In this document: in pieces, positions 14,096 to 56,502 of the stretch
Layout of the letters: each line of letters begins with the position of its first letter
Numbering within the stretch: position 1 is the stretch's first letter
Program-made: the position numbers and the translations under genes
Source: Patescibacteria group bacterium
GTDB taxonomy: Bacteria; Patescibacteriota; Patescibacteriia; UBA9570
Direction: 5' to 3'
Assembly: GCA_041660305.1 (NCBI GenBank)
Contig: JBAZWO010000001.1
Coordinates: 290,268 to 354,267, forward strand
DNA: 64,000 bases
Notes under the pieces: model-generated
What the model saw: only the letters and a program-made list of their open reading frames with translations
Told to the model about the DNA's origin: nothing
The model's database searches: none

Positions 14096-14318
14096 CTACC
14101 TCACCTCCCGGCCTCCTCTCCTTAAAACTACCTTCCTCCCTAACCCTCCTTCCTCAAAGGCAGGAGGGAATAATTTCTTTAATTATCATTTCTTATCCCC
14201 CTCTCTCCTTAGAGGAGAGAGGGGGTTGGGGGGAGTGAGGTAGGTTGTTTAGGGGAGAGGGGGTTAGGCCATCGGCTCTGAGGCTCTGGCTCGAAGAGGG
14301 GAGAGGTAGTCTACCTCC
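14096..14318. repeat. GC-rich modular palindromic element, composite locus R3 (inverted partner of R4)
   Basis: It starts CTACCTCACCTCCC and ends GAGAGGTAG/CTACCTCC. About 170 bp match the reverse complement of 15677-15857. The rpsR stop codon (14311-14313) lies at its edge. Confidence 0.85.
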
Positions 14319-18859: not shown

Positions 18860-20700
18860 ATCGTAAAAGCCCAGCGGTTGCTGGTGCTTGGTCACAATAA
18901 CAATAATGTAATTGTGACCCGGTATGTTGTCAGCCAACTGTTCGAACCGCCGTGAGAAACCAATGACACAAAATAGTGTGTCTTGATTCGCTCGCGGCAA
19001 CTTGGGAGAAAGCAAAATGCAACTGAAACGTCTTTGGGGTTTAATACCCCTGAGTCTGTTGATGGTTGGTGTACAGGAGTGTCCGACCACGACAACGCCG
19101 CCGGAGTATGAGCGCACTATCATCAACTATGACCATGTCGCACTCAACTTTGATCCGAGTGGCACAATCACGGTCGATGCAGACGTGACCGTGGCGGATG
19201 GTGATCAGGGTGTGGCAGTCGATGTTGGGGACTTTGTTCCAACCTACTCCACAACAACATTCCACCAGGACGGTGCATATGAAATCTACGACGTACCGAC
19301 CGGTGGTGAGCAGACATTCCACTTATCCGGCAACACGACCTTGCAAAATTCGTGGCAGGGAGTCTCCTACATGGTTCACCCCGACTACGGATATTCAAGT
19401 GTACAATCGATCATCTGGCCGTACAACGGTGTCAACGTCGGTCCCTACCAGAACGACTCATTCTCGCGCCCTGATGGTATGGTGAAGTTCACATGGGGGG
19501 GAATCTACGGACTTGAAAACATGTTCGGTGGTCAGACACCCATCATCCTGCGAGGTGACACGGAAGGACCTGGTGGATCTGCCTACACGGCATTCGCATT
19601 GGCAGCAAGTCCTGACTACGACCTTTACGAAGTAGGGACGTCAAACGGAGGGGTTCTTCTCCGTTCGTACTATTTCAAATCTGATCCAGAACAGCCAGGA
19701 AAAGTCGCCTATTTGAACCGATACACACTATCTATGATGAACTGGCTCGAGAAAAACTTCGGACCCTATCCTCAAACCAAGTACACGAGCGCATCAGTTC
19801 TGCTCGGAACCGGCGGTGGTATGGAAGGTCCAGTCGTCATGTATGACAATCTCAACAGTGGCGACGCTTCCTGGTACGGCGGTGACCATGAACCGCCGCA
19901 CGCCTTCATCGGGACCAGTGTTAGAACAGGAGACCCTATCTACCAAGCCTTCAATGAGGGTACGGTAGTGAGTCTACAGACCGCTCATCTGAACGAAGAC
20001 GGTAGCCCAGCAGATTTCAAAACCGTCACTGACTTCCTCTGTGATATGATTCCCTACGCTGCTACGTATGAAAGGAACTTTGTGCCTTGGCCGGCAGGAC
20101 AGGAAGGAATGTATGCTCTGGATGAGATGACACGAGGAAGTACGTACTACAAAACTGGATTTATCTCGTGGATGCTCCAGGAAGAGCGCGGATACTCCGG
20201 CTACGTGAAAGGTGTGGACTTGTTTATTCAGCGACATCGAGACAATACCTTTACGGATGAGGAATTCATTCGCGACATGACCGATGGGTACGAAGGTGCT
20301 GTCAGCTATGACGAAATCTACACCAGATATGCTGAATTGCAAAACCCTAATTCTGTGTACCCTGCGGGCTACGAAACCTACTGTCCAGACGCCGCAAAAA
20401 CGTGGAAAACCCGCGACGAAAACTACTGGAAGATGCATGGCATCACATATCGTCTTCATCCGGGCATGCCGGCCTGGGGCGAGTACGTGAACTAAAACCA
20501 TCCTCCCCTTTTTTTTGAGAAGCACCCGGCGCTGACCTGAAAGCGCCGTGATCGGAGGATCTTCGCTTCTCCCTACCCAACAGGCCGCTCACCTGATCTC
20601 CCCGCCTTTCCCACCGAAAGCCGCGCGACGATAAAATGAGCAAATTCCTAGTGTTCATCTCTGCTACGCTAAAGCTACGCAGAAGGTGGGTAGTAGATAA
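18860..20700. other. Compositional island 1 (GC-rich relative to flanks)
   Basis: The line starting at 19081 has 34/60 G+C, against 17-19/60 in typical host lines. Boundaries are approximate. Confidence 0.7.
19017..20495 (+). CDS. Secreted M1-family (gluzincin) zinc metallopeptidase
   Basis: HEPPH followed exactly 18 residues later by E (FNEG) gives the HExxH-X18-E gluzincin motif. The upstream GGGMEG resembles the GxMEN exopeptidase motif. There is an N-terminal signal (MQLKRLWGLIPLSLLMVGVQEC). The ATG at 19017 is preferred over the track's TTG at 19002 because GGGAGA lies 7 nt upstream. Confidence 0.75.
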   Translation: MQLKRLWGLIPLSLLMVGVQECPTTTTPPEYERTIINYDHVALNFDPSGTITVDADVTVADGDQGVAVDVGDFVPTYSTTTFHQDGAYEIYDVPTGGEQTFHLSGNTTLQNSWQGVSYMVHPDYGYSSVQSIIWPYNGVNVGPYQNDSFSRPDGMVKFTWGGIYGLENMFGGQTPIILRGDTEGPGGSAYTAFALAASPDYDLYEVGTSNGGVLLRSYYFKSDPEQPGKVAYLNRYTLSMMNWLEKNFGPYPQTKYTSASVLLGTGGGMEGPVVMYDNLNSGDASWYGGDHEPPHAFIGTSVRTGDPIYQAFNEGTVVSLQTAHLNEDGSPADFKTVTDFLCDMIPYAATYERNFVPWPAGQEGMYALDEMTRGSTYYKTGFISWMLQEERGYSGYVKGVDLFIQRHRDNTFTDEEFIRDMTDGYEGAVSYDEIYTRYAELQNPNSVYPAGYETYCPDAAKTWKTRDENYWKMHGITYRLHPGMPAWGEYVN

Positions 20701-20725: not shown

Positions 20726-21100
20726 TTATATTGATAACGTATCCAAAATGATTTTTAGTACACTATCAATATTTTTTAATATCTTATCATTACTAAATCG
20801 CAGAATATTACAGCCATATAATTGTAATACAAAATCACGCCCTTGATCTCGTTGCTGTTGATAGTTATGAATCTCACCATCAACTTCAATGACTAATTTC
20901 TTTTCGTGACAATAAAAATCAACAATAGAAGAATACAAAGGATATTGCCTACGAAATTTATATCCTAACATTTTACTACGCTGCAAATAATACCATAATT
21001 TCTCTTCTGCTTGAGTAGGATTATGACGTAAACTCTTAGCAAGATAATGCAGTTTATTTTGCAAAGTAATATCTCGAGATTGTTTGGATTGTGTTAACAT
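20726..21100 (-). CDS. DUF559 / Vsr-like endonuclease-domain protein
   Basis: Contains LWYYLQRSKMLGYKFRRQYPLYSSIVDFYCHEKKLVIEVDGEIH...ILRF, typical of DUF559. The ORF-track N-terminus MAGGRAGEGGQTH is read-through into repeat R7, so the ATG at 21100-21098 is preferred. Composition is host-like and AT-rich. Confidence 0.75.
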   Translation of the reverse strand: MLTQSKQSRDITLQNKLHYLAKSLRHNPTQAEEKLWYYLQRSKMLGYKFRRQYPLYSSIVDFYCHEKKLVIEVDGEIHNYQQQRDQGRDFVLQLYGCNILRFSNDKILKNIDSVLKIILDTLSI

Positions 21101-21108
21101 GTGCGTTT

Positions 21109-21193
21109 GACCTCCCTCCCCAGCCCTCCCTCCTGCCAAGAGGGAGGGAGTTAAACCCCCTGCCTTGCAGGGAAGGGGGTAGGGGGAAGGGTC
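21109..21193. repeat. GC-rich palindromic element, locus R7 (inverted partner of R6)
   Basis: 85 bp, GACCTCCCTCCCCAGCC...GGGGGAAGGGTC. The ligA TGA stop (21192-21194) overlaps its last bases. Confidence 0.9.
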
Positions 21194-23180
21194 ATTTTAT
21201 TAATTTTAGGAATTCCTGTTCAGATAAAATTTTCACTCCTAATTTTTTCGCTGTATTATATTTCGAGCCCGGCTCTTCTCCGGCTACTACATAATCGGTG
21301 CTTTTGCTCACGCTACTGGAAATTTTGCCGCCGGCTTGGCGGATTTTAGCTTTGGCTTCGTCCCGCAACATGGTTTTTAGAGTGCCGGTTAGCACAAAAG
21401 TTTTGCCGGTTATCTTATTGGTAGAGACAGATTGCAATCTGTCTCTACCAATTACGGATTGCACCTGAACATATTTCAATAATTCATCTAATTGAGCTTG
21501 CTGTTTTTTATTATGAAAATAATCATAAACACTTTTGGCTACTATTGGACCAATTTCTGGAATAGCTTGTAATTGTTCCAAATTATTATTACGTAATGCG
21601 GTGATGGTGGTAAATTGATTTGCTAACAAAATAGCGGTTTCTTCACCTACATGGCGAATACCTAAGGCATATAACAAACGAGGCAATGATACGTTTCGAG
21701 CTTGTTGAATTTCTTGCACCAAATTAGCGGCCGATTTATCGGCAAACCGATCTAGCGGCTCTAATACTACTTTGGTTAATTTAAAAATATCAGCAAAATT
21801 ATTCACTAACCCGGCTTGCATTAATTGATCGATTATTTTCGGTCCTAAACCTTCAATATCCAAGCCTTTTTTAGACACAAAATGATATAAGCGCTCTTGT
21901 TCCTGGGCAAAACACGCTGGATTAGTACAGTAATACGCTACTTCACCGGTTTTACGCGTTACTGCCGCGCCACAAACCGGACATTTATTTGGAAACATGT
22001 ATGGCTTACTATGTTTTGGTCGTAATGCCGGCAACACCTGCACTACATCGGGAATAATATCACCGGCTTTTTCTATAATTACCGTATCGCCTATTCGAAC
22101 ATCTAGCCGCTTGATTTCATCTTCATTATGCAATGTAGCCCGAGATACTGTAGAGCCAGCTACGGTAACCGGTCGTAAATGCGCTACCGGTGTTAACGCG
22201 CCAGTGCGCCCTACTTGCACTTGAATGTCTGCTACAATAGTAGTGGTTTGTTGTGCCGGGAATTTGTATGCCACTGCTCCGCGTGGCGCTTTACCTACCA
22301 CGCCTAATTGTTTAAAAATATTAATATTATCCACATTTATCACCATACCGTCTATCCAATAGGGTAATTTTTCTCTTATTTTCATTAATTGTTCGTAATG
22401 TTTTTGTACAGCGGCTAAATTATTACAACGTAAATTATTAGCATTAGACGGAAAACCTAATGTTTGTAAATATTCGTGCACCGCGGAATGATTTAAAATG
22501 GCCAAATTGGTTGCGCAATCATAGGCCATAAAGCTCAATTTCCTAGCCGCTACTACTTTAGGATCCAGCTGGCGAATACTGCCGGCGGCTACGTTTCTTG
22601 GGTTAGCGAATTTTTGTTCCGCTGTTTTATTAATCAGCTCAAATTGCTGTTTGGTCATGTACACTTCTCCTCTTACTTCTATGTGTTCTGGGTAATCCCC
22701 TTGCAACTGTAACGGTATTGCCTCAATGGTTTTTAAATTTTCGGTAACATCTTCACCAATTTTACCATCGCCCCGGGTGGAACCACGAACAAATTTACCT
22801 TGTTTATATTCTAACGCTACCGCTAAACCGTCCATTTTTATTTCTGTGTAATAAGCTAATGGCTCGTTAGTAAGCTTGGTTAAACGCTGTTCCCAAGCTT
22901 GTAATTCTGCAAAAGAAAAAATGTCGTTCAATGATAGCATTTTTACCGCGTGTGTTACTTTGGAAAAATTAGCCAATGGCAAACCACCAACTCGCTGACT
23001 GGGTGAATCCGGTGTAATTAAATCTGGATATTGATTTTCTAACTGTGTTAATTCATGTTTTAAAGAATCCAGCGCCGCTTCCGAAATTTCTTGTTTATCT
23101 AATACATGATAAAGATAACGATAATGCTCTATTTCTTTACACAGCTGTTTTAGACGAGTTTTAGCTTGGGATTTGGTCAT
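21192..23180 (-). CDS. ligA: NAD-dependent DNA ligase
   Basis: 662 aa with the adenylation motif EIKMDGLAV, a Zn finger CPVCG...CTNPAC, HhH repeats and a C-terminal BRCT domain (GKTFVLTGTL). Confidence 0.93.
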   Translation of the reverse strand: MTKSQAKTRLKQLCKEIEHYRYLYHVLDKQEISEAALDSLKHELTQLENQYPDLITPDSPSQRVGGLPLANFSKVTHAVKMLSLNDIFSFAELQAWEQRLTKLTNEPLAYYTEIKMDGLAVALEYKQGKFVRGSTRGDGKIGEDVTENLKTIEAIPLQLQGDYPEHIEVRGEVYMTKQQFELINKTAEQKFANPRNVAAGSIRQLDPKVVAARKLSFMAYDCATNLAILNHSAVHEYLQTLGFPSNANNLRCNNLAAVQKHYEQLMKIREKLPYWIDGMVINVDNINIFKQLGVVGKAPRGAVAYKFPAQQTTTIVADIQVQVGRTGALTPVAHLRPVTVAGSTVSRATLHNEDEIKRLDVRIGDTVIIEKAGDIIPDVVQVLPALRPKHSKPYMFPNKCPVCGAAVTRKTGEVAYYCTNPACFAQEQERLYHFVSKKGLDIEGLGPKIIDQLMQAGLVNNFADIFKLTKVVLEPLDRFADKSAANLVQEIQQARNVSLPRLLYALGIRHVGEETAILLANQFTTITALRNNNLEQLQAIPEIGPIVAKSVYDYFHNKKQQAQLDELLKYVQVQSVIGRDRLQSVSTNKITGKTFVLTGTLKTMLRDEAKAKIRQAGGKISSSVSKSTDYVVAGEEPGSKYNTAKKLGVKILSEQEFLKLIK
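21418..21451. repeat. 34-bp perfect palindrome inside ligA (GTAGAGAC family)
   Basis: TTGGTAGAGACAGATTG|CAATCTGTCTCTACCAA. It encodes IGRDRLQSVSTN in the linker before the BRCT domain. Confidence 0.85.
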
Positions 23181-27449: not shown

Positions 27450-28124
27450 TTAATTTAATTTTAATATCCGCTTAGTCACAACTGGTATTTCTTTTTGAAA
27501 ATATTTTTTTACTTGCGCCCAGGTAGTATCAAAAAATATTTCAGGCATTGGATCAATTTCCGCATCTGCAAAATACATTAAACTTTTCATAATATGATGA
27601 TAATCATGTGCCACCGTAGGATATTGCCTTGCTACACGTAAAATAATATCAAACAGGGATTCACAATGATGTAAATACCAATACAAATCAAAAAAATCAC
27701 GTTTTTTACCACGTTGGCTAATAGCTATTATTTTCATTACCGCAATATCACGCTTATCCACTATTGCCACATTACCAAAGTACAAAACTGGTTGCTCTGG
27801 AATAAAAAATGGATAGGCAATAAAACTAATTTTAGCATTATATAAACGTCCGTACACCGTTCCTTCTTCATTTACATCAGTATGCCAGATAGTTCCAGGA
27901 AAGTGTTTTAATAACACCGTTGTACGAAAATCTTTTTTTGGTAGAAAAAAATCAAGATCAAGTGATAAACGATGACCTACTTGTAATGTTAAGGCTGTGC
28001 CACCAGCTAAATACCAATCAGTGCCTTTTAACCAAGACTGGTTTGATAAATACTCCAAAGCCAGTCTGGTGTTTTTTGGAATATTATTAAGATGCCAGAT
28101 TATGTTTTGCTTAGTGCTAGCCAT
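27450..28124 (-). CDS. Nucleotidyltransferase AbiEii/AbiGii-family toxin (type IV TA)
   Basis: 224 aa with the hallmark LAGGTALTLQVGHRLSLDLDFF. Confidence 0.8.
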   Translation of the reverse strand: MASTKQNIIWHLNNIPKNTRLALEYLSNQSWLKGTDWYLAGGTALTLQVGHRLSLDLDFFLPKKDFRTTVLLKHFPGTIWHTDVNEEGTVYGRLYNAKISFIAYPFFIPEQPVLYFGNVAIVDKRDIAVMKIIAISQRGKKRDFFDLYWYLHHCESLFDIILRVARQYPTVAHDYHHIMKSLMYFADAEIDPMPEIFFDTTWAQVKKYFQKEIPVVTKRILKLN

Positions 28125-28351
28125 AACAAACGAGTTTTGTCTCGTAAAGATCGTGATTGTTTAGCGACATCGACCAACAGAGTATGAGAGTAAGTCTGCC
28201 ACATCCAGCGAGCTTCTTTATCTGTACCAAAATCCATAATCCGTTCAATAACGTAACGAGCATGTTTTTTTGGGTTAATAGTTTTTGGATCCACATCCCA
28301 AAACAAAGTTTTCCGCCGTGGCATTTTTTGTAACATGTTAGAAGATTTCAT
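28100..28351 (-). CDS. Small upstream partner of the AbiEii toxin (candidate antitoxin)
   Basis: 83 aa, overlapping the toxin gene by 25 nt. It contains FWDVDPKTINPKKHARYVIERIMDFG. I could recognise no wHTH, so the role is inferred from position. Confidence 0.45.
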   Translation of the reverse strand: MKSSNMLQKMPRRKTLFWDVDPKTINPKKHARYVIERIMDFGTDKEARWMWQTYSHTLLVDVAKQSRSLRDKTRLLWLALSKT

Positions 28352-42759: not shown

Positions 42760-42807
42760 CTACCTCTATCACCCCAGCCCCCTTTCCCCTAAACAGGGGA
42801 AAGGGGG
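42760..42807. repeat. GC-rich modular palindromic element, locus R9
   Basis: CTACCTCTATCACCCCAG then the imperfect hairpin CCCCCTTTCCCC-TAAA-CAGGGGAAAGGGGG (arms unequal by one base, so the stem has one unpaired/mismatched position). It sits at the right edge of island 2. Confidence 0.8.
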
Positions 42808-52367: not shown

Positions 52368-52440
52368 GCCCTGGTAGCTCAGTGGATAGAGCATTCGGTT
52401 GCGGTCCGAAGGGTCGCAGGTTCGATTCCCGCCCAGGGCA
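52368..52440 (+). tRNA. tRNA-Arg (anticodon GCG)
   Basis: Hand-folded cloverleaf of 73 nt. The acceptor stem is GCCCTGG/CCAGGGC and the D arm is GCTC-AGTGGATA-GAGC, with A20. The anticodon arm is TTCGG-TTGCGGT-CCGAA with GCG at 52401-52403. The T arm is GCAGG-TTCGATT-CCCGC with one A-C mismatch. The discriminator is A. No CCA is encoded. Confidence 0.9.
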
Positions 52441-52448
52441 CATTTAAA

Positions 52449-52487
52449 ACGTAGAGACGCATTGCAAGGCGTCTCTACGTTTTTTTT
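52449..52487 (+). terminator. Intrinsic terminator after tRNA-Arg (member of the GTAGAGAC palindrome family)
   Basis: ACGTAGAGACGC-ATTGCAAG-GCGTCTCTACGT followed by T8. Confidence 0.8.
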
Positions 52488-52963: not shown

Positions 52964-54391
52964 ATGGAACAACCTAATAATCCACTAGCCAATTCTGAAC
53001 AAACCAATCCAATTGTAGACCATCTGGAACAAGACATGGCTAATTTATTAAATAAAGATGGCTTGAATATTCGCTTGCCAAAAGCAGCCATGTTAAGCGT
53101 GCTTAAAAAAGCTTTAGGCCAGGTTAAGTTAACGCCAGAAAATATTACTAAATTAGAAAATGCTCACGTGCAACTAGCTGTTATTAATAAAATAGCCTTA
53201 GCTGATTTAGCTAATCGAGTGGCTAATGGCATGGGCGAATCATTAGATGAAGCGCCACCAGCTGGCGTAACCGAAGCCGTGCAGGCTTTGCCAAATCAAT
53301 TTAATTCTTTTGGCAACATGCCTGATAATCTACCAACCATGGCTATGCCTGCTACTTCAAGACCGCCTACAAATTTAGCTCACCAAACTCAACCAAGGCC
53401 AAGTAATGATATGGCTATGCCCGGCGAAGGCGTTGGTGATGATGAACCAACTCCTAATAAACCGGCTGCCGGCCAACAAGCAACCACACAACCAACTCAA
53501 CCAGCTAACGCCCCGGCCAATTTCCCCGGCTTAAACGCTCCGTCTGCTCAACCGGTAATGCCTACCGCGCAACCTGGCGCTGATAGCAGCTTCCCTTATC
53601 AAGGCACGCCTGAACAGCAAAAACAAGCCGAACCGCCTTTTGCTCAAAATGCATTAGCTAATCAAGACGCACAGCCTACTCCTCCACCAACTGCTGGATC
53701 ACCCACTCCAGCTGGTGCCACTAATACTCCACCTCCTGGTACTCCGCCACCGGCTGCCGGTGCACCTGGCACGCCTAATAATCAACCGGCCGGCGCCACT
53801 TCTAATGCCGCTAATCCTGCAACACAACCACAGGCCCAAACCGGCGGCCAACCTACTGCTGGAACAACCCCTAATAATAACACAGCTACTCAAAAAAAAA
53901 CCAAGCAAGTTGGCCCAATAGGTAACCTATTCAATCGTATACATAGACGCGGAAAAATAAATGCAGTCAATACAAAAATTAAGGATACACAAAATAAATT
54001 AAAAGATGTATCATTTCAGTTTGCTACAGAATACTTTGTTATTGTTTGTTTTAAAGAATTACTAGATTTTTTAATGACACTATTAGATGCTACCGGCTTC
54101 ATGATTATTATTTGCACGGCTATTAGTGCCGCCTGTGGCTCTGTAATCGGCTTAATTATTTGGTGGCAAACTAAAACTTGGAAAAAAGAAGTATTTAATA
54201 ATAAAATAGCGCTCCAAGCTATAGTAGCTTTTCTTTTAGAGTTAATTCCTATTATACAATTACTACCATTAAATATTGCTATGGCTTACGCCTTAACTAT
54301 TCAAACCGAACGGCGCAAAAAACATCATGAAAATAAATTAGACAAACTACAAAAAGAAAAACATAAGTTAATCAATCAGAAAAAAATATGA
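52964..54391 (+). CDS. Hypothetical Pro/Gln/Ala/Thr-rich protein with C-terminal TM helices
   Basis: 475 aa. A central roughly 200-aa low-complexity region is followed by 2-3 TM helices. The stop overlaps the recG start (ATGA). Confidence 0.45.
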   Translation: MEQPNNPLANSEQTNPIVDHLEQDMANLLNKDGLNIRLPKAAMLSVLKKALGQVKLTPENITKLENAHVQLAVINKIALADLANRVANGMGESLDEAPPAGVTEAVQALPNQFNSFGNMPDNLPTMAMPATSRPPTNLAHQTQPRPSNDMAMPGEGVGDDEPTPNKPAAGQQATTQPTQPANAPANFPGLNAPSAQPVMPTAQPGADSSFPYQGTPEQQKQAEPPFAQNALANQDAQPTPPPTAGSPTPAGATNTPPPGTPPPAAGAPGTPNNQPAGATSNAANPATQPQAQTGGQPTAGTTPNNNTATQKKTKQVGPIGNLFNRIHRRGKINAVNTKIKDTQNKLKDVSFQFATEYFVIVCFKELLDFLMTLLDATGFMIIICTAISAACGSVIGLIIWWQTKTWKKEVFNNKIALQAIVAFLLELIPIIQLLPLNIAMAYALTIQTERRKKHHENKLDKLQKEKHKLINQKKI

Positions 54392-56502
54392 TGCTGACCG
54401 GCCTGCACGGCGTTGGCACGGCTATACAACAAAAACTGCGCCGGTTAGCTATTACTACTTTAACCGATTTGTTATATCACTTTCCGGCTCATTACGAGGA
54501 TTTTTCAAATATCACCGCTATTACTGCTTGCGCAACGGATCAAGCCGTTACCATATTAGGCACAATAAAAAAAATTAGCACACGGCGTAGCTGGAAACGG
54601 CGCCGGTTTACCATTACCGAAGCTACCATTACAGATGCTAGTGGTGACATGAGGGTAATTTGGTTTAATCAAGCATATATTGCCGAACAACTACCGGCCA
54701 ACACTTTGGTTTATTTATCCGGAAAAATAACCCTTTACCAAAAAAAATTAGTGCTTAATAACCCTGTTTATGAACTATACAAAACCGAAACGGTTCATAC
54801 GGCCAGAATTGTACCGCGTTACGCGTTAACTACCGGTTTAACCCATAAACAACTACGCTATTTTATAAAACAAGCCCTACAAATACAAACTACTAATTAC
54901 TCCATTATTAAAGACTGGCTACCAGCTAATATATTAGATCAATATCAATTACTGCCCATTACTCAAGCTCTGCAAGCCATTCATTTTCCAAATAGCTGGG
55001 CAGAATTAGAGCAAGCCAAATATCGTTTAGGGTTTGATGAATTATTATTAGTACTGTTATTTGTACAAGCTACGCGCGCTAGTTTAGCTAAAGAAACGGC
55101 TCCTAGTATCCCGTTTGCCAAAACGCCTACTAAAACATTAGTGGATCGGCTCCCTTTTCAGCTCACGAATGATCAACGCGTAGCTGCTTGGGATATTATT
55201 AAAGACTTACAGCACACTACGCCCATGAACCGCTTACTAGAAGGCGATGTGGGCTCTGGTAAAACCGTAGTGGCCGCGTTGGCTATGTACAACGTAGCCC
55301 TAGCTTGTTATCAAGCCGTGCTTATGGCGCCTACTGAATTATTAGCCGAACAGCATTATCACACGATTAAACAATTATTTAGCCATACTAATATTAACGT
55401 GGGCTTGTGGACGCGTAGTAAAAAGATTGCTGCCTCGTTTCCAAGCGTCCTACCTCACCCCCCAACCCCCTCTCCTCTGAGGAGAGGGGGAGAATTTCTC
55501 CCTTCTCCTTTGAGGAGAAGGGCTGGGGATGAGGTAGGTAGCGGCGAGATTATTATTGGCACCCAAGCTTTGATTCAAAAAAATGTTCATTTTCCAAAAT
55601 TGGCGTTGGTGGTGGTGGATGAACAACACCGTTTTGGTGTTACCCAACGACAACAGCTAAAACAAGTAGCGACGCCCCGCGGGGCGTCTCTACTGACCCC
55701 TCATTTATTATCCATGACCGCTACGCCGATTCCCCGATCACTCGCCTTAACTATTTACGGTGATTTAGATTTATCATTATTAGCCCAGCTCCCAAAAAAC
55801 CGTAAACCTATTATTACTAAATTGTTTTCCACTGAACAACGTTTAGTTTTACAAAAAATTATTACTGAACACTTAGCTAATCAAGCGCAAATTTATGTAG
55901 TAGTACCAAGAATTGAAGAAAAAGATGACGGCGCTCGTTCTGTACAGACTGAGTATAAACACTGGCAAAAATTATTTCCAAATTATCGAATAGCTTATTT
56001 ACACGGCCAATTGCCAACCGAAGAAAAACAAGCGGTTATGGAGCAATTCCGCGCTGGAAAAATTGCGGTGTTAATAACTACCACGGTAATTGAAGTAGGG
56101 GTAGACGTACCTAATGCTACCGTAATGATTATAGAAGGGGCTGAACACTTTGGTCTAGCGCAGCTACATCAATTACGCGGTCGCGTGGGACGCTCACACC
56201 AACAATCCTATTGCTATGTTTGTACTGACGTGGCGTATCCCATAAAACGTTTGCAATATTTTGTAAAAAATCATAATGGGTTTGCCTTAGCAGACTACGA
56301 TTTAAAACTGCGCGGCCCCGGCGCTGTCTACGGCGCCATCCAATCCGGCTACTTCAACCAATTTAAAATAGCTACCTTAAGTAACACCAAACAACTCCAA
56401 CAAGTTAAAGCCGCTGCCGCCACACTTTACCCAAACATTAAACGCTACCCCGCTTTACACGCCAAACTGCAACACATGATAAAGCGGGTGCATTTAGAGT
56501 GA
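54388..56502 (+). CDS. recG: ATP-dependent DNA helicase RecG (carrying two palindromic-element insertions)
   Basis: 704 aa with a wedge domain, motif I GDVGSGKT, DEQHRFGV, TATPIPRSLA and QLRGRVGR. The reading frame is intact across the repeat at 55450-55537. Confidence 0.9.
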   Translation: MMLTGLHGVGTAIQQKLRRLAITTLTDLLYHFPAHYEDFSNITAITACATDQAVTILGTIKKISTRRSWKRRRFTITEATITDASGDMRVIWFNQAYIAEQLPANTLVYLSGKITLYQKKLVLNNPVYELYKTETVHTARIVPRYALTTGLTHKQLRYFIKQALQIQTTNYSIIKDWLPANILDQYQLLPITQALQAIHFPNSWAELEQAKYRLGFDELLLVLLFVQATRASLAKETAPSIPFAKTPTKTLVDRLPFQLTNDQRVAAWDIIKDLQHTTPMNRLLEGDVGSGKTVVAALAMYNVALACYQAVLMAPTELLAEQHYHTIKQLFSHTNINVGLWTRSKKIAASFPSVLPHPPTPSPLRRGGEFLPSPLRRRAGDEVGSGEIIIGTQALIQKNVHFPKLALVVVDEQHRFGVTQRQQLKQVATPRGASLLTPHLLSMTATPIPRSLALTIYGDLDLSLLAQLPKNRKPIITKLFSTEQRLVLQKIITEHLANQAQIYVVVPRIEEKDDGARSVQTEYKHWQKLFPNYRIAYLHGQLPTEEKQAVMEQFRAGKIAVLITTTVIEVGVDVPNATVMIIEGAEHFGLAQLHQLRGRVGRSHQQSYCYVCTDVAYPIKRLQYFVKNHNGFALADYDLKLRGPGAVYGAIQSGYFNQFKIATLSNTKQLQQVKAAAATLYPNIKRYPALHAKLQHMIKRVHLE
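55450..55537. repeat. GC-rich modular palindromic element, locus R11, inside the recG ORF
   Basis: CTACCTCACCCCCC...GGGGATGAGGTAG with hairpins CCCCCTCTCC-TCTGA-GGAGAGGGGG and CCCTTCTCC-TTTGA-GGAGAAGGG. It is translated as LPHPPTPSPLRRGGEFLPSPLRRRAGDEVG. Confidence 0.85.
55666..55693. repeat. GTAGAGAC-family palindrome inside recG
   Basis: GTAGCGACGCCCC|GCGGGGCGTCTCTAC, with one stem mismatch. It encodes VATPRGASLL between helicase motifs II and III. Confidence 0.75.

Follow-up and report, generated by a model that had tools for sequence, protein, structure and literature searches.

Three short palindromes lie in a 64,000-nucleotide stretch of the genome of a Patescibacteria group bacterium (GenBank assembly GCA_041660305.1, contig JBAZWO010000001.1, positions 290,268 to 354,267 of the forward strand; the whole stretch is called the window below). 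One lies inside the DNA ligase gene ligA, one at the 3' end of a tRNA-Arg gene, and one inside the helicase gene recG. The host is a metagenome-assembled genome of the Patescibacteria, or Candidate Phyla Radiation (CPR), that falls near Kerfeldbacteria. The palindromes are probably double-foot GTAG repetitive extragenic palindromes (REPs) of the kind handled by REP-associated tyrosine transposases (RayT, or TnpA_REP) of subclass 2.4, the equivalent of RAYT group 4. Their membership in this family is evident from sequence and architecture. Also evident are the distribution of copies across genomes, a bias for positions 3' of genes, an association with RayT genes elsewhere (a probable CPR contig included), lineage-specific presence and absence, and the terminator-like structure of one copy.

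In the double-foot form, 5'-GTAG stands at the foot of a hairpin and the complementary CTAC-3' at its other end, and the same hairpin is thus available on both strands. The subclass 2.4 enzymes, which are transposases of the Y1 HUH type, would act in trans by cutting and rejoining REPs as single-stranded hairpins. Copies usually settle just 3' of genes, where the hairpin may end or stabilize transcripts, and the tRNA-Arg copy, framed by an A-tract and a run of eight Ts (T8), would serve as a terminator. The ligA and recG copies would be tolerated as short in-frame peptide inserts in permissive surface segments of their proteins. The resident ligA copy would be replaced or re-homogenized repeatedly by family members from the same genome, its fixed length of 28 bp keeping the reading frame.

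A previous sequence-only reading of this DNA had pointed out three related palindromes with common arms, and all three are where it had placed them, each spanning exactly 28 bp from GTAG to CTAC. Within the 64-kb window the pattern GTAGMGAC-N4-24-GTCKCTAC returned three matches against the 0.00 expected from 100 dinucleotide-preserving shuffles. The ligA copy (GTAGAGACAGATTGCAATCTGTCTCTAC) pairs at 14 of 14 positions, and its symmetry is indeed perfect as had been read, but over 36 bp (21417-21452) instead of 34. The copies by tRNA-Arg (GTAGAGACGCATTGCAAGGCGTCTCTAC) and in recG (GTAGCGACGCCCCGCGGGGCGTCTCTAC) have one mismatch each. The three fold into stems of 12-16 bp with loops of 4-8 nucleotides (nt). 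An independent assembly in ENA also contains the ligA copy, which is therefore not an assembly artefact. When Rfam covariance models were run on the window, the gathering score was reached by tRNA only, and no family was found at any of the three sites. Both intragenic copies lie within conserved open reading frames (ORFs) at the inter-domain or inter-motif positions that had been proposed. The recG copy occupies the segment between the DEQH and TATP motifs, and the ligA copy encodes IGRDRLQSVSTN (residues 577-588), in the linker between the HhH (Pfam, 501-562) and BRCT (590-661) domains.

The family at large was surveyed by searching for GTAGAGAC-N12-GTCTCTAC, in which only the outer 8 nt are specified, in one genome per GTDB species; the figures given here come from the matches listed. 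These span at least 10 phyla or classes and include Bacteroidota, many Cyanobacteria, Chloroflexota, Planctomycetes, Acidobacteria, Spirochaetes, Zixibacteria, Ignavibacteria, Desulfobacterota, Methylococcales, and one Neisseriaceae strain. Among 128 listed matches the 12-nt interior is perfectly self-complementary in 83, for which the chance expectation is 1 in 4096, and it pairs at five of six positions in 28 more. The consensus is GTAGAGACG, a variable self-complementary core, and CGTCTCTAC. Elements have a fixed length of 28 bp, a constant arm of 8-9 nt (GTAGAGAC(G)) and a core of 10-12 nt that is variable but self-complementary, and the cores of the unique elements are all different. Of the genomic copies, 88% have a Watson-Crick pair at the central positions 13/16 and 84% have one at 14/15; G-T pairs account for only 2-5%. 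Since the symmetry runs through the loop and G-T pairs are rare, it is a property of the DNA and not merely of an RNA hairpin, and selection for an RNA hairpin alone is disfavoured for the same reasons. Whichever strand is read, two reading frames out of three (VET....SL and xRD....VST) stay open, and in-frame copies can therefore survive. The 2.67 Mb of fetched DNA contain six other perfect palindromes bounded by GTAG and CTAC, every one of them again exactly 28 bp long, with different arms that start with GTAGGGGCACG, GTAGGGAACGG, GTAGAGCCAC, GTAGAGAAAA, or GTAGGGACGC; this architecture is therefore that of a superfamily. Sister families of the GTAGGGAACGG, GTAGAGCCAC, GTAGAGAAAA, and GTAGGGACGC types are located at L202:6285-6312, L023:920, L215:1408 and 7122, and L273:5386 (L numbers denote fetched loci). 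A literature search for the GTAGAGACG and CGTCTCTAC strings returned only primers and short hairpin RNA oligonucleotides.

Copies of the family are placed preferentially behind genes. A position no more than 40 nt downstream of the stop codon of an ORF of at least 100 amino acids (aa) is found for 38% of copies against 6% of random positions, and only 26% of copies lie in ORFs of at least 200 aa compared with 75% of control positions. At three loci (L004, L036, and L057) several genes in a row are each followed by one copy. Within this broad sample, copies that are truly internal sit in AcrB, a GH2 glycosidase, and a leucine-rich repeat (LRR) protein, and no bias towards DNA-repair genes is claimed. 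No direct repeats indicative of target-site duplication flank the copies; all that is seen is that T is favoured at position -1 and A at +1. A miniature inverted-repeat transposable element was considered and rejected, as there are no flanking direct repeats, the length is 28 bp where such elements usually exceed 50 bp, and there is no internal segment. Flanks that continue the palindrome by at least 3 nt are present in 9 of 127 copies versus about 2% of controls. Such flanks are seen at L076:303-354, L096:5862-5913, L104, and L114, and some resemble insertion into the centre of an existing terminator hairpin, e.g., AAAAAACGGCCG-[28]-CGGCCGTTTT.

The same pattern gave many matches in viral contigs of IMG/VR, among those listed. 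The element is thus carried by phages, which could spread it. In five viral contigs (L218, L219, L222, L248, and L259) two copies, one 3' of the major capsid gene and the other 3' of the prohead protease gene, are separated by 1857 nt within a conserved phage structural module. The possibility that these pairs form the ends of an insertion sequence was rejected, as they are intergenic hairpins in a conserved capsid-protease-portal module.

Detailed inspection of the fetched loci by motif and tblastn searches (120 genome loci, plus the viral loci) links the family to RayT. Genes of the Y1 HUH type touch a family copy in 8 of the 120 genome loci (L014, L015, L040, L084, L064, L092, L002, and L020) and in one viral locus (L292). 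The RayT-like gene of L015 has identical family copies on both sides, and the genes of L014, L064, and L092 themselves contain an in-frame copy. The best NCBIfam match of the linked proteins is NF047646, the REP-associated tyrosine transposase, with E values of 1e-15 to 1e-18; their matches to Pfam Y1_Tnp are weak. Their motifs, NH[LF]H, WQ, and YIxNNP, are those tabulated for TnpA_REP subclass 2.4 (PMC6006769). A further example lies beside ligA on a probable CPR contig (L127, 5291-5833, minus strand), where a RayT with NHFH, WQ, and YIRDNP motifs carries in frame a sister 28-bp palindrome, GTAGGGGCACGGCGCGCCGTGCCCCTAC, read as RRGTARRAPT. The neighbouring ligA is 53% identical to that of the window. 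Homologues of the L127 RayT include entries named Patescibacteria and Uhrbacteria, and 98 of 120 listed homologues contain a REP-encoded peptide, a proportion obtained with a word-based search that is biased towards such entries. The L127 contig came from a metagenome scan with the LigA alignment that also served as a negative control: among the matches listed, in which LigA is at most 56% identical, no ligA gene has the element. With widespread copies, the bias for gene 3' ends, empty orthologous sites, and the RayT association, the suggestion of a family of mobile hairpins that enter genes or are recruited as terminators is borne out.

The tRNA-Arg copy begins 9 nt past the end of the tRNA gene. 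Together with its AAAAC/GTTTT flanks it forms a 15-bp stem followed by T8, a structure that folds at -23.7 kcal/mol (z = -8.1) and was matched in a terminator scan. By scan and fold, then, this copy has the canonical hairpin-plus-T8 structure of an intrinsic terminator, as had been read, and it probably acts as one in vivo. The A-tract on the 5' side makes the structure potentially bidirectional. It is the only copy in the window in which a G+C-rich hairpin is directly followed by a U-run. The ligA hairpin folds as RNA at -27.5 kcal/mol (z = -6.4) and the recG copy at -21.7 kcal/mol, but no U-run follows either stem, so these two copies are not terminators and premature intrinsic termination at them is unlikely. 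No palindrome of this kind was found at the syntenic tRNA-Arg loci of two relatives (L210 and L211). In L210, the closest relative, tRNA-Arg(GCG) (579-652) is inverted relative to the window copy, and in L211 a second tRNA-Arg (CCG) follows tRNA-Arg(GCG); the locus is rearrangement-prone.

The ligA copy is not private to the window. REP-type peptides occupy the corresponding linker position (site 1) in many LigA orthologues of 59-70% identity, many close relatives are without the element, and the linker of more distant orthologues is 8-10 residues shorter. The DNA of eight ligA orthologues revealed family members with different, though invariably palindromic, cores at this site, some with palindromic flanks. 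They include ACGAGATCTCGT (perfect over 32 bp), GCGATTAATCGC (perfect over 40 bp in L203 and 28 bp in L207), GCGATGAATCGC, a 29-nt variant GCCCCGGCGGGGC, and three decaying copies; about half of the orthologous ligA copies (L205, L206, L208, and L209) are decaying. The flank symmetry takes the form of ATTG/CAAT, CA/TG, and GTCAGG/CCTGAC. Changes on both sides are found in 7 of 14 pairs, a value reached by none of 500 shuffles. A second hot spot for REPs is found within the HhH domain at about window residues 530-540 (about 21560-21600), where the window LigA itself is empty. This site is occupied in P0002, P0003, and P0016 (LigA orthologues; loci L203:3810-3837 and L205:5048-5075) and holds decayed copies in P0005, P0013, P0018, and P0030. 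In L203 an older collapsed remnant, GCAGAAACGTCTGC, stands beside an intact fresh copy. On a neighbour-joining LigA tree built with the hot spots masked, occupancy of site 1 appears in three clades and scattered tips, with empty sites nested among them.

Between ligA and gatC, the segment 19002-21139 of the window contains a DUF559 endonuclease-like gene (20726-21139, minus strand) and an ORF of 497 aa with no Pfam match (19002-20495, plus strand). In the eight relatives examined gatC-gatA follows ligA directly or almost directly, and the segment is therefore a lineage-specific insertion. A link between the DUF559 gene and the palindrome was rejected, since none of the relatives with the ligA palindrome has this gene.

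In recG, none of 70 aligned orthologues, which are at most 59% identical, has a REP-type peptide at the site of the copy, and their loop is shorter than that of the window RecG by only about 3 residues. The copy is lineage-specific, but it is no clean insertion. It had been proposed to align LigA and RecG with orthologues to see whether these 10-12 codons are lineage-specific insertions. The recG copy is indeed lineage-specific, but RecG shows no clean gain of that size, and the ligA copy marks a hot spot common to a Patescibacteria clade. Presence and absence is polymorphic at all three orthologous sites, with the tRNA-Arg site empty in L210 and L211, the recG site empty in all 70 orthologues, and the ligA sites patchily occupied. 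RecG contains a second feature of note, as two adjacent copies of another palindrome family (CCCCCTCTCC...GGAGAGGGGG) make up an in-frame insert of about 35 residues (PSPLRRGGEFLPSPLRRRAGDEV; 55435-55545) that occurs in no orthologue. Single copies of this family, presumably the first family of the sequence-only reading, are found at 14197-14225 and 42778-42807, and the 5' end of the DUF559 ORF lies in a related G/C-rich stretch (21100-21145).

The cores at the ligA sites suggest, in a small sample, that resident copies may be re-inserted at, replaced by, or converted to the current subfamily of their genome and do not simply decay by vertical descent. Close relatives have unrelated site-1 cores (P0032 versus P0037, with LigA 82% identical, and P0014 versus P0007, 84%). 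The window ligA core matches that of its own tRNA-Arg copy at 7 of 12 positions, with a common centre ATTGCAA, and those of all orthologous-site copies at no more than 3 of 12. The two ligA copies of L203 agree at 11 of 12 positions, and L205 has two unusual 29-nt GCCCCGNCGGGGC variants, one at site 1 and one intergenic within that locus. It is possible, if still rather doubtful, that an intragenic REP in a permissive linker serves as a landing pad that is overwritten repeatedly by the active subfamily of the genome, either through the RayT system or by conversion between copies, in a frame-preserving cassette exchange. As every family member is exactly 28 bp long, each exchange would keep the reading frame. 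LigA in the whole Patescibacteria clade would therefore carry a continually renewed cassette, maintained at the level of DNA, at two hot spots.

Several points weigh against the assignment to RayT-handled REPs. No Y1 or RayT gene lies within the 64-kb window, so mobilization by RayT in this genome is something that we infer. The linked proteins elsewhere score below the 80-bit equivalog cutoff of NF047646, and RayT-driven transposition of REPs has had no formal demonstration so far according to the available text of PMC6006769. Compared with orthologues that lack the element, the net gains in length do not come to a clean 28 or 30 bp: RecG is about 3 aa longer, and the gains at the second LigA site are 4 and 12 aa. 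Either insertion therefore went together with further changes, or the element had a different origin or mode of copying. Finally, dyad symmetry through the four central bases, with few G-T pairs, is not required if only a hairpin is recognized, so an additional process may act at the level of duplex DNA or its copying, such as template-switch correction or duplex recognition. Much of this would fit a family that spread and was homogenized without RayT, by homologous or microhomology gene conversion together with template-switch (quasipalindrome) correction at replication forks, with the RayT association incidental or the RayT genes themselves the targets. Perfect symmetry through the loop and palindromic flanks in the ligA orthologues are the expected product of template switching, the length changes are not simple insertions, and REP-bearing genomes without tnpA_REP are known (available text of PMC6006769). 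We nevertheless consider such a route improbable. Conversion cannot make copies at new sites, such as the 3' end of tRNA-Arg, and 9-nt arms that are identical across phyla need a sequence-specific agent; the contact between RayT genes and copies in 8 of 120 loci is a tight association, and flank extension of 3 nt or more is confined to 9 of 127 copies.

Purifying selection provides another way to account for the ligA and recG palindromes, which could be cis-acting elements, either the binding site of a dimeric DNA-binding protein or an mRNA structure that regulates expression of the repair genes, that are kept for their function and not through mobility. Occupation of the same LigA linker site in several clades and compensatory changes in 7 of 14 pairs would agree with this, and symmetry that spans the centre with rare G-T pairs would suit recognition of duplex DNA by a dimer. 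Both intragenic copies of the window are in DNA-repair genes, and many intragenic REPs in replication and repair genes have been described (Di Nocera et al., PMC3733652). However, about half of the orthologous copies are decaying and many close relatives have none, the cores of close relatives can be wholly different, the recG copy is unique to the lineage of the window, the identical element follows unrelated genes across many phyla and also in phages, and the internal copies elsewhere are not in repair genes. Selection of this kind is thus very improbable as the main explanation. That the palindromes are coincidental or artefacts of assembly has nothing in its favour beyond the low copy number of three in the window and can be regarded as refuted: chance predicts no matches, the 28-bp architecture is identical in all three copies, the ligA copy occurs in two independent assemblies, both intragenic copies preserve long conserved ORFs, and there are hundreds of relatives elsewhere. 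RayT-handled double-foot REPs remain the probable identity of the three elements.

Elements of this kind have been described before. In the available text of Quentin et al. (2018, PMC6006769), subclass 2.4 TnpA_REP, or RAYT group 4, is linked to double-foot REPs with 5' GT[AG]G and 3' C[TC]AC, and in-frame REP insertions in tnpA_REP genes are reported. The family resembles these REPs in the feet placed around a long hairpin (a basal stem of 7-20 nt with a small loop), in hosts that comprise Cyanobacteria, Bacteroidetes, and scattered other phyla, in associated proteins with NH[IFV]H-like, WQ, and YIxNNP motifs, and in a mainly extragenic placement near gene 3' ends with occasional in-frame copies, represented in the window by one copy 3' of a tRNA and two in frame. 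The present occurrence differs in its host, a member of the Patescibacteria, with no RayT gene in the 64-kb window. RAYT group 4 was found in 17 bacterial classes with flanking 16-mers that are weakly repeated, at 14 occurrences (Bertels et al. 2017, PMC5581495, available text); the variable core would explain this weak k-mer signal. The available text of these two papers does not mention the fixed 28 bp, a symmetry that continues through the loop, a free core between constant 9-nt arms, or repeated occupancy and turnover at two ligA sites. Di Nocera et al. (2013, PMC3733652) described GTAG REPs in frame inside genes that include DNA ligase, uvrA, recB, and dnaE2, many of them replication and repair genes. 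Their superfamily is likewise made up of small GTAG-ended palindromes, mostly 3' of genes and some in frame, in which complementary stem changes define subfamilies. In classical GTAG REPs, however, an unpaired GTAG is found at just one end, loops measure 2-3 nt, and G-T pairs are common, whereas in the present family GTAG is paired with CTAC, no loop is obligatory, and G-T pairs are rare. The GTAGAGAC string is absent from the text of that paper. The view of a second mobile hairpin family is upheld as regards mobility, but the family itself is no novelty, given that the double-foot GTAG REP type is published (PMC6006769; PMC3733652).

The REPs of E. coli, with their bacterial interspersed mosaic elements (BIMEs), are served by a Y1 HUH enzyme (TnpA_REP or RayT, structure 4ER8) that recognizes a hairpin with a 5' GTAG guide tetranucleotide, and they too act as hairpins at the 3' ends of transcripts. 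They differ in that the RayT is of subclass 2.2 and the REPs are imperfect, bulged, asymmetric, arranged in BIMEs, very high in copy number, and species-specific. Rickettsia palindromic elements (RPEs) are also palindromic repeats that lie in frame in conserved genes at permissive surface positions, but they are about 100-150 bp long and have no GTAG/CTAC feet. To our knowledge, RPEs occur in Rickettsia alone and no RayT is associated with them. The SDR4-6 repeats of Nostocaceae are reportedly mobile hairpin repeats of 21-27 nt that sometimes lie inside genes, and the Nostoc and Calothrix copies found here may, we presume, be the same. RPEs are also mentioned in PMC3733652. The kind of element is known, and what is new is the host phylum, the sites (two ligA hot spots, the recG loop, and the tRNA-Arg terminator), the explicit architecture of 28 bp with constant arm and free core, and the hint of in-place turnover.

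Table 1. Positions in the window of the double-foot REP copies and of the genes and structure that contain or adjoin them.
Feature	Position	Strand	Details
Double-foot REP copy in ligA	21421..21448	.	GTAGAGAC-AGATTGCAATCT-GTCTCTAC; in-frame reading on the minus strand GRDRLQSVST
ligA, NAD-dependent DNA ligase, 662 aa (host gene)	21192..23180	-	Element in the HhH-to-BRCT linker
tRNA-Arg, anticodon GCG	52368..52441	+	Element adjoins the 3' end
Intrinsic-terminator structure 3' of tRNA-Arg(GCG)	52446..52487	+	15-bp stem on the REP copy plus T8 at 52480-52487
Double-foot REP copy by tRNA-Arg	52451..52478	.	GTAGAGAC-GCATTGCAAGGC-GTCTCTAC; 13/14 pairs; AAAAC/GTTTT flanks lengthen the hairpin to 52446-52483
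recG, 704 aa (host gene)	54388..56502	+	Element between helicase motifs II (DEQH) and III (TATP)
Double-foot REP copy in recG	55666..55693	.	GTAGCGAC-GCCCCGCGGGGC-GTCTCTAC; 13/14 pairs; in-frame reading VATPRGASL(L)

Away from these loci, the window contains a gene for an AbiEii-type nucleotidyltransferase toxin and a DUF6922 gene (27450-28351), likely a toxin-antitoxin pair, within a type IV pilus cluster, and a Fic/DOC family gene that runs off the window start (1-714).

The assignment of the three palindromes extends RayT-associated double-foot REPs, whether selfish or domesticated, to the reduced genomes of the CPR, where they lie in frame inside essential repair genes. It also bears on annotation, as GRDxxxxVST and VETxxxxSL peptides in LigA, RecG, AcrB, and RayT are REP-encoded and are not lineage-specific protein motifs, and some terminators of tRNAs and other genes are built from double-foot REPs. 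What stands out as most original is that intragenic copies appear to be turned over in place. If true, turnover in ligA would provide a natural system for how RayT enzymes move or exchange REPs, and it would explain the long persistence of a mobile element inside an essential gene.

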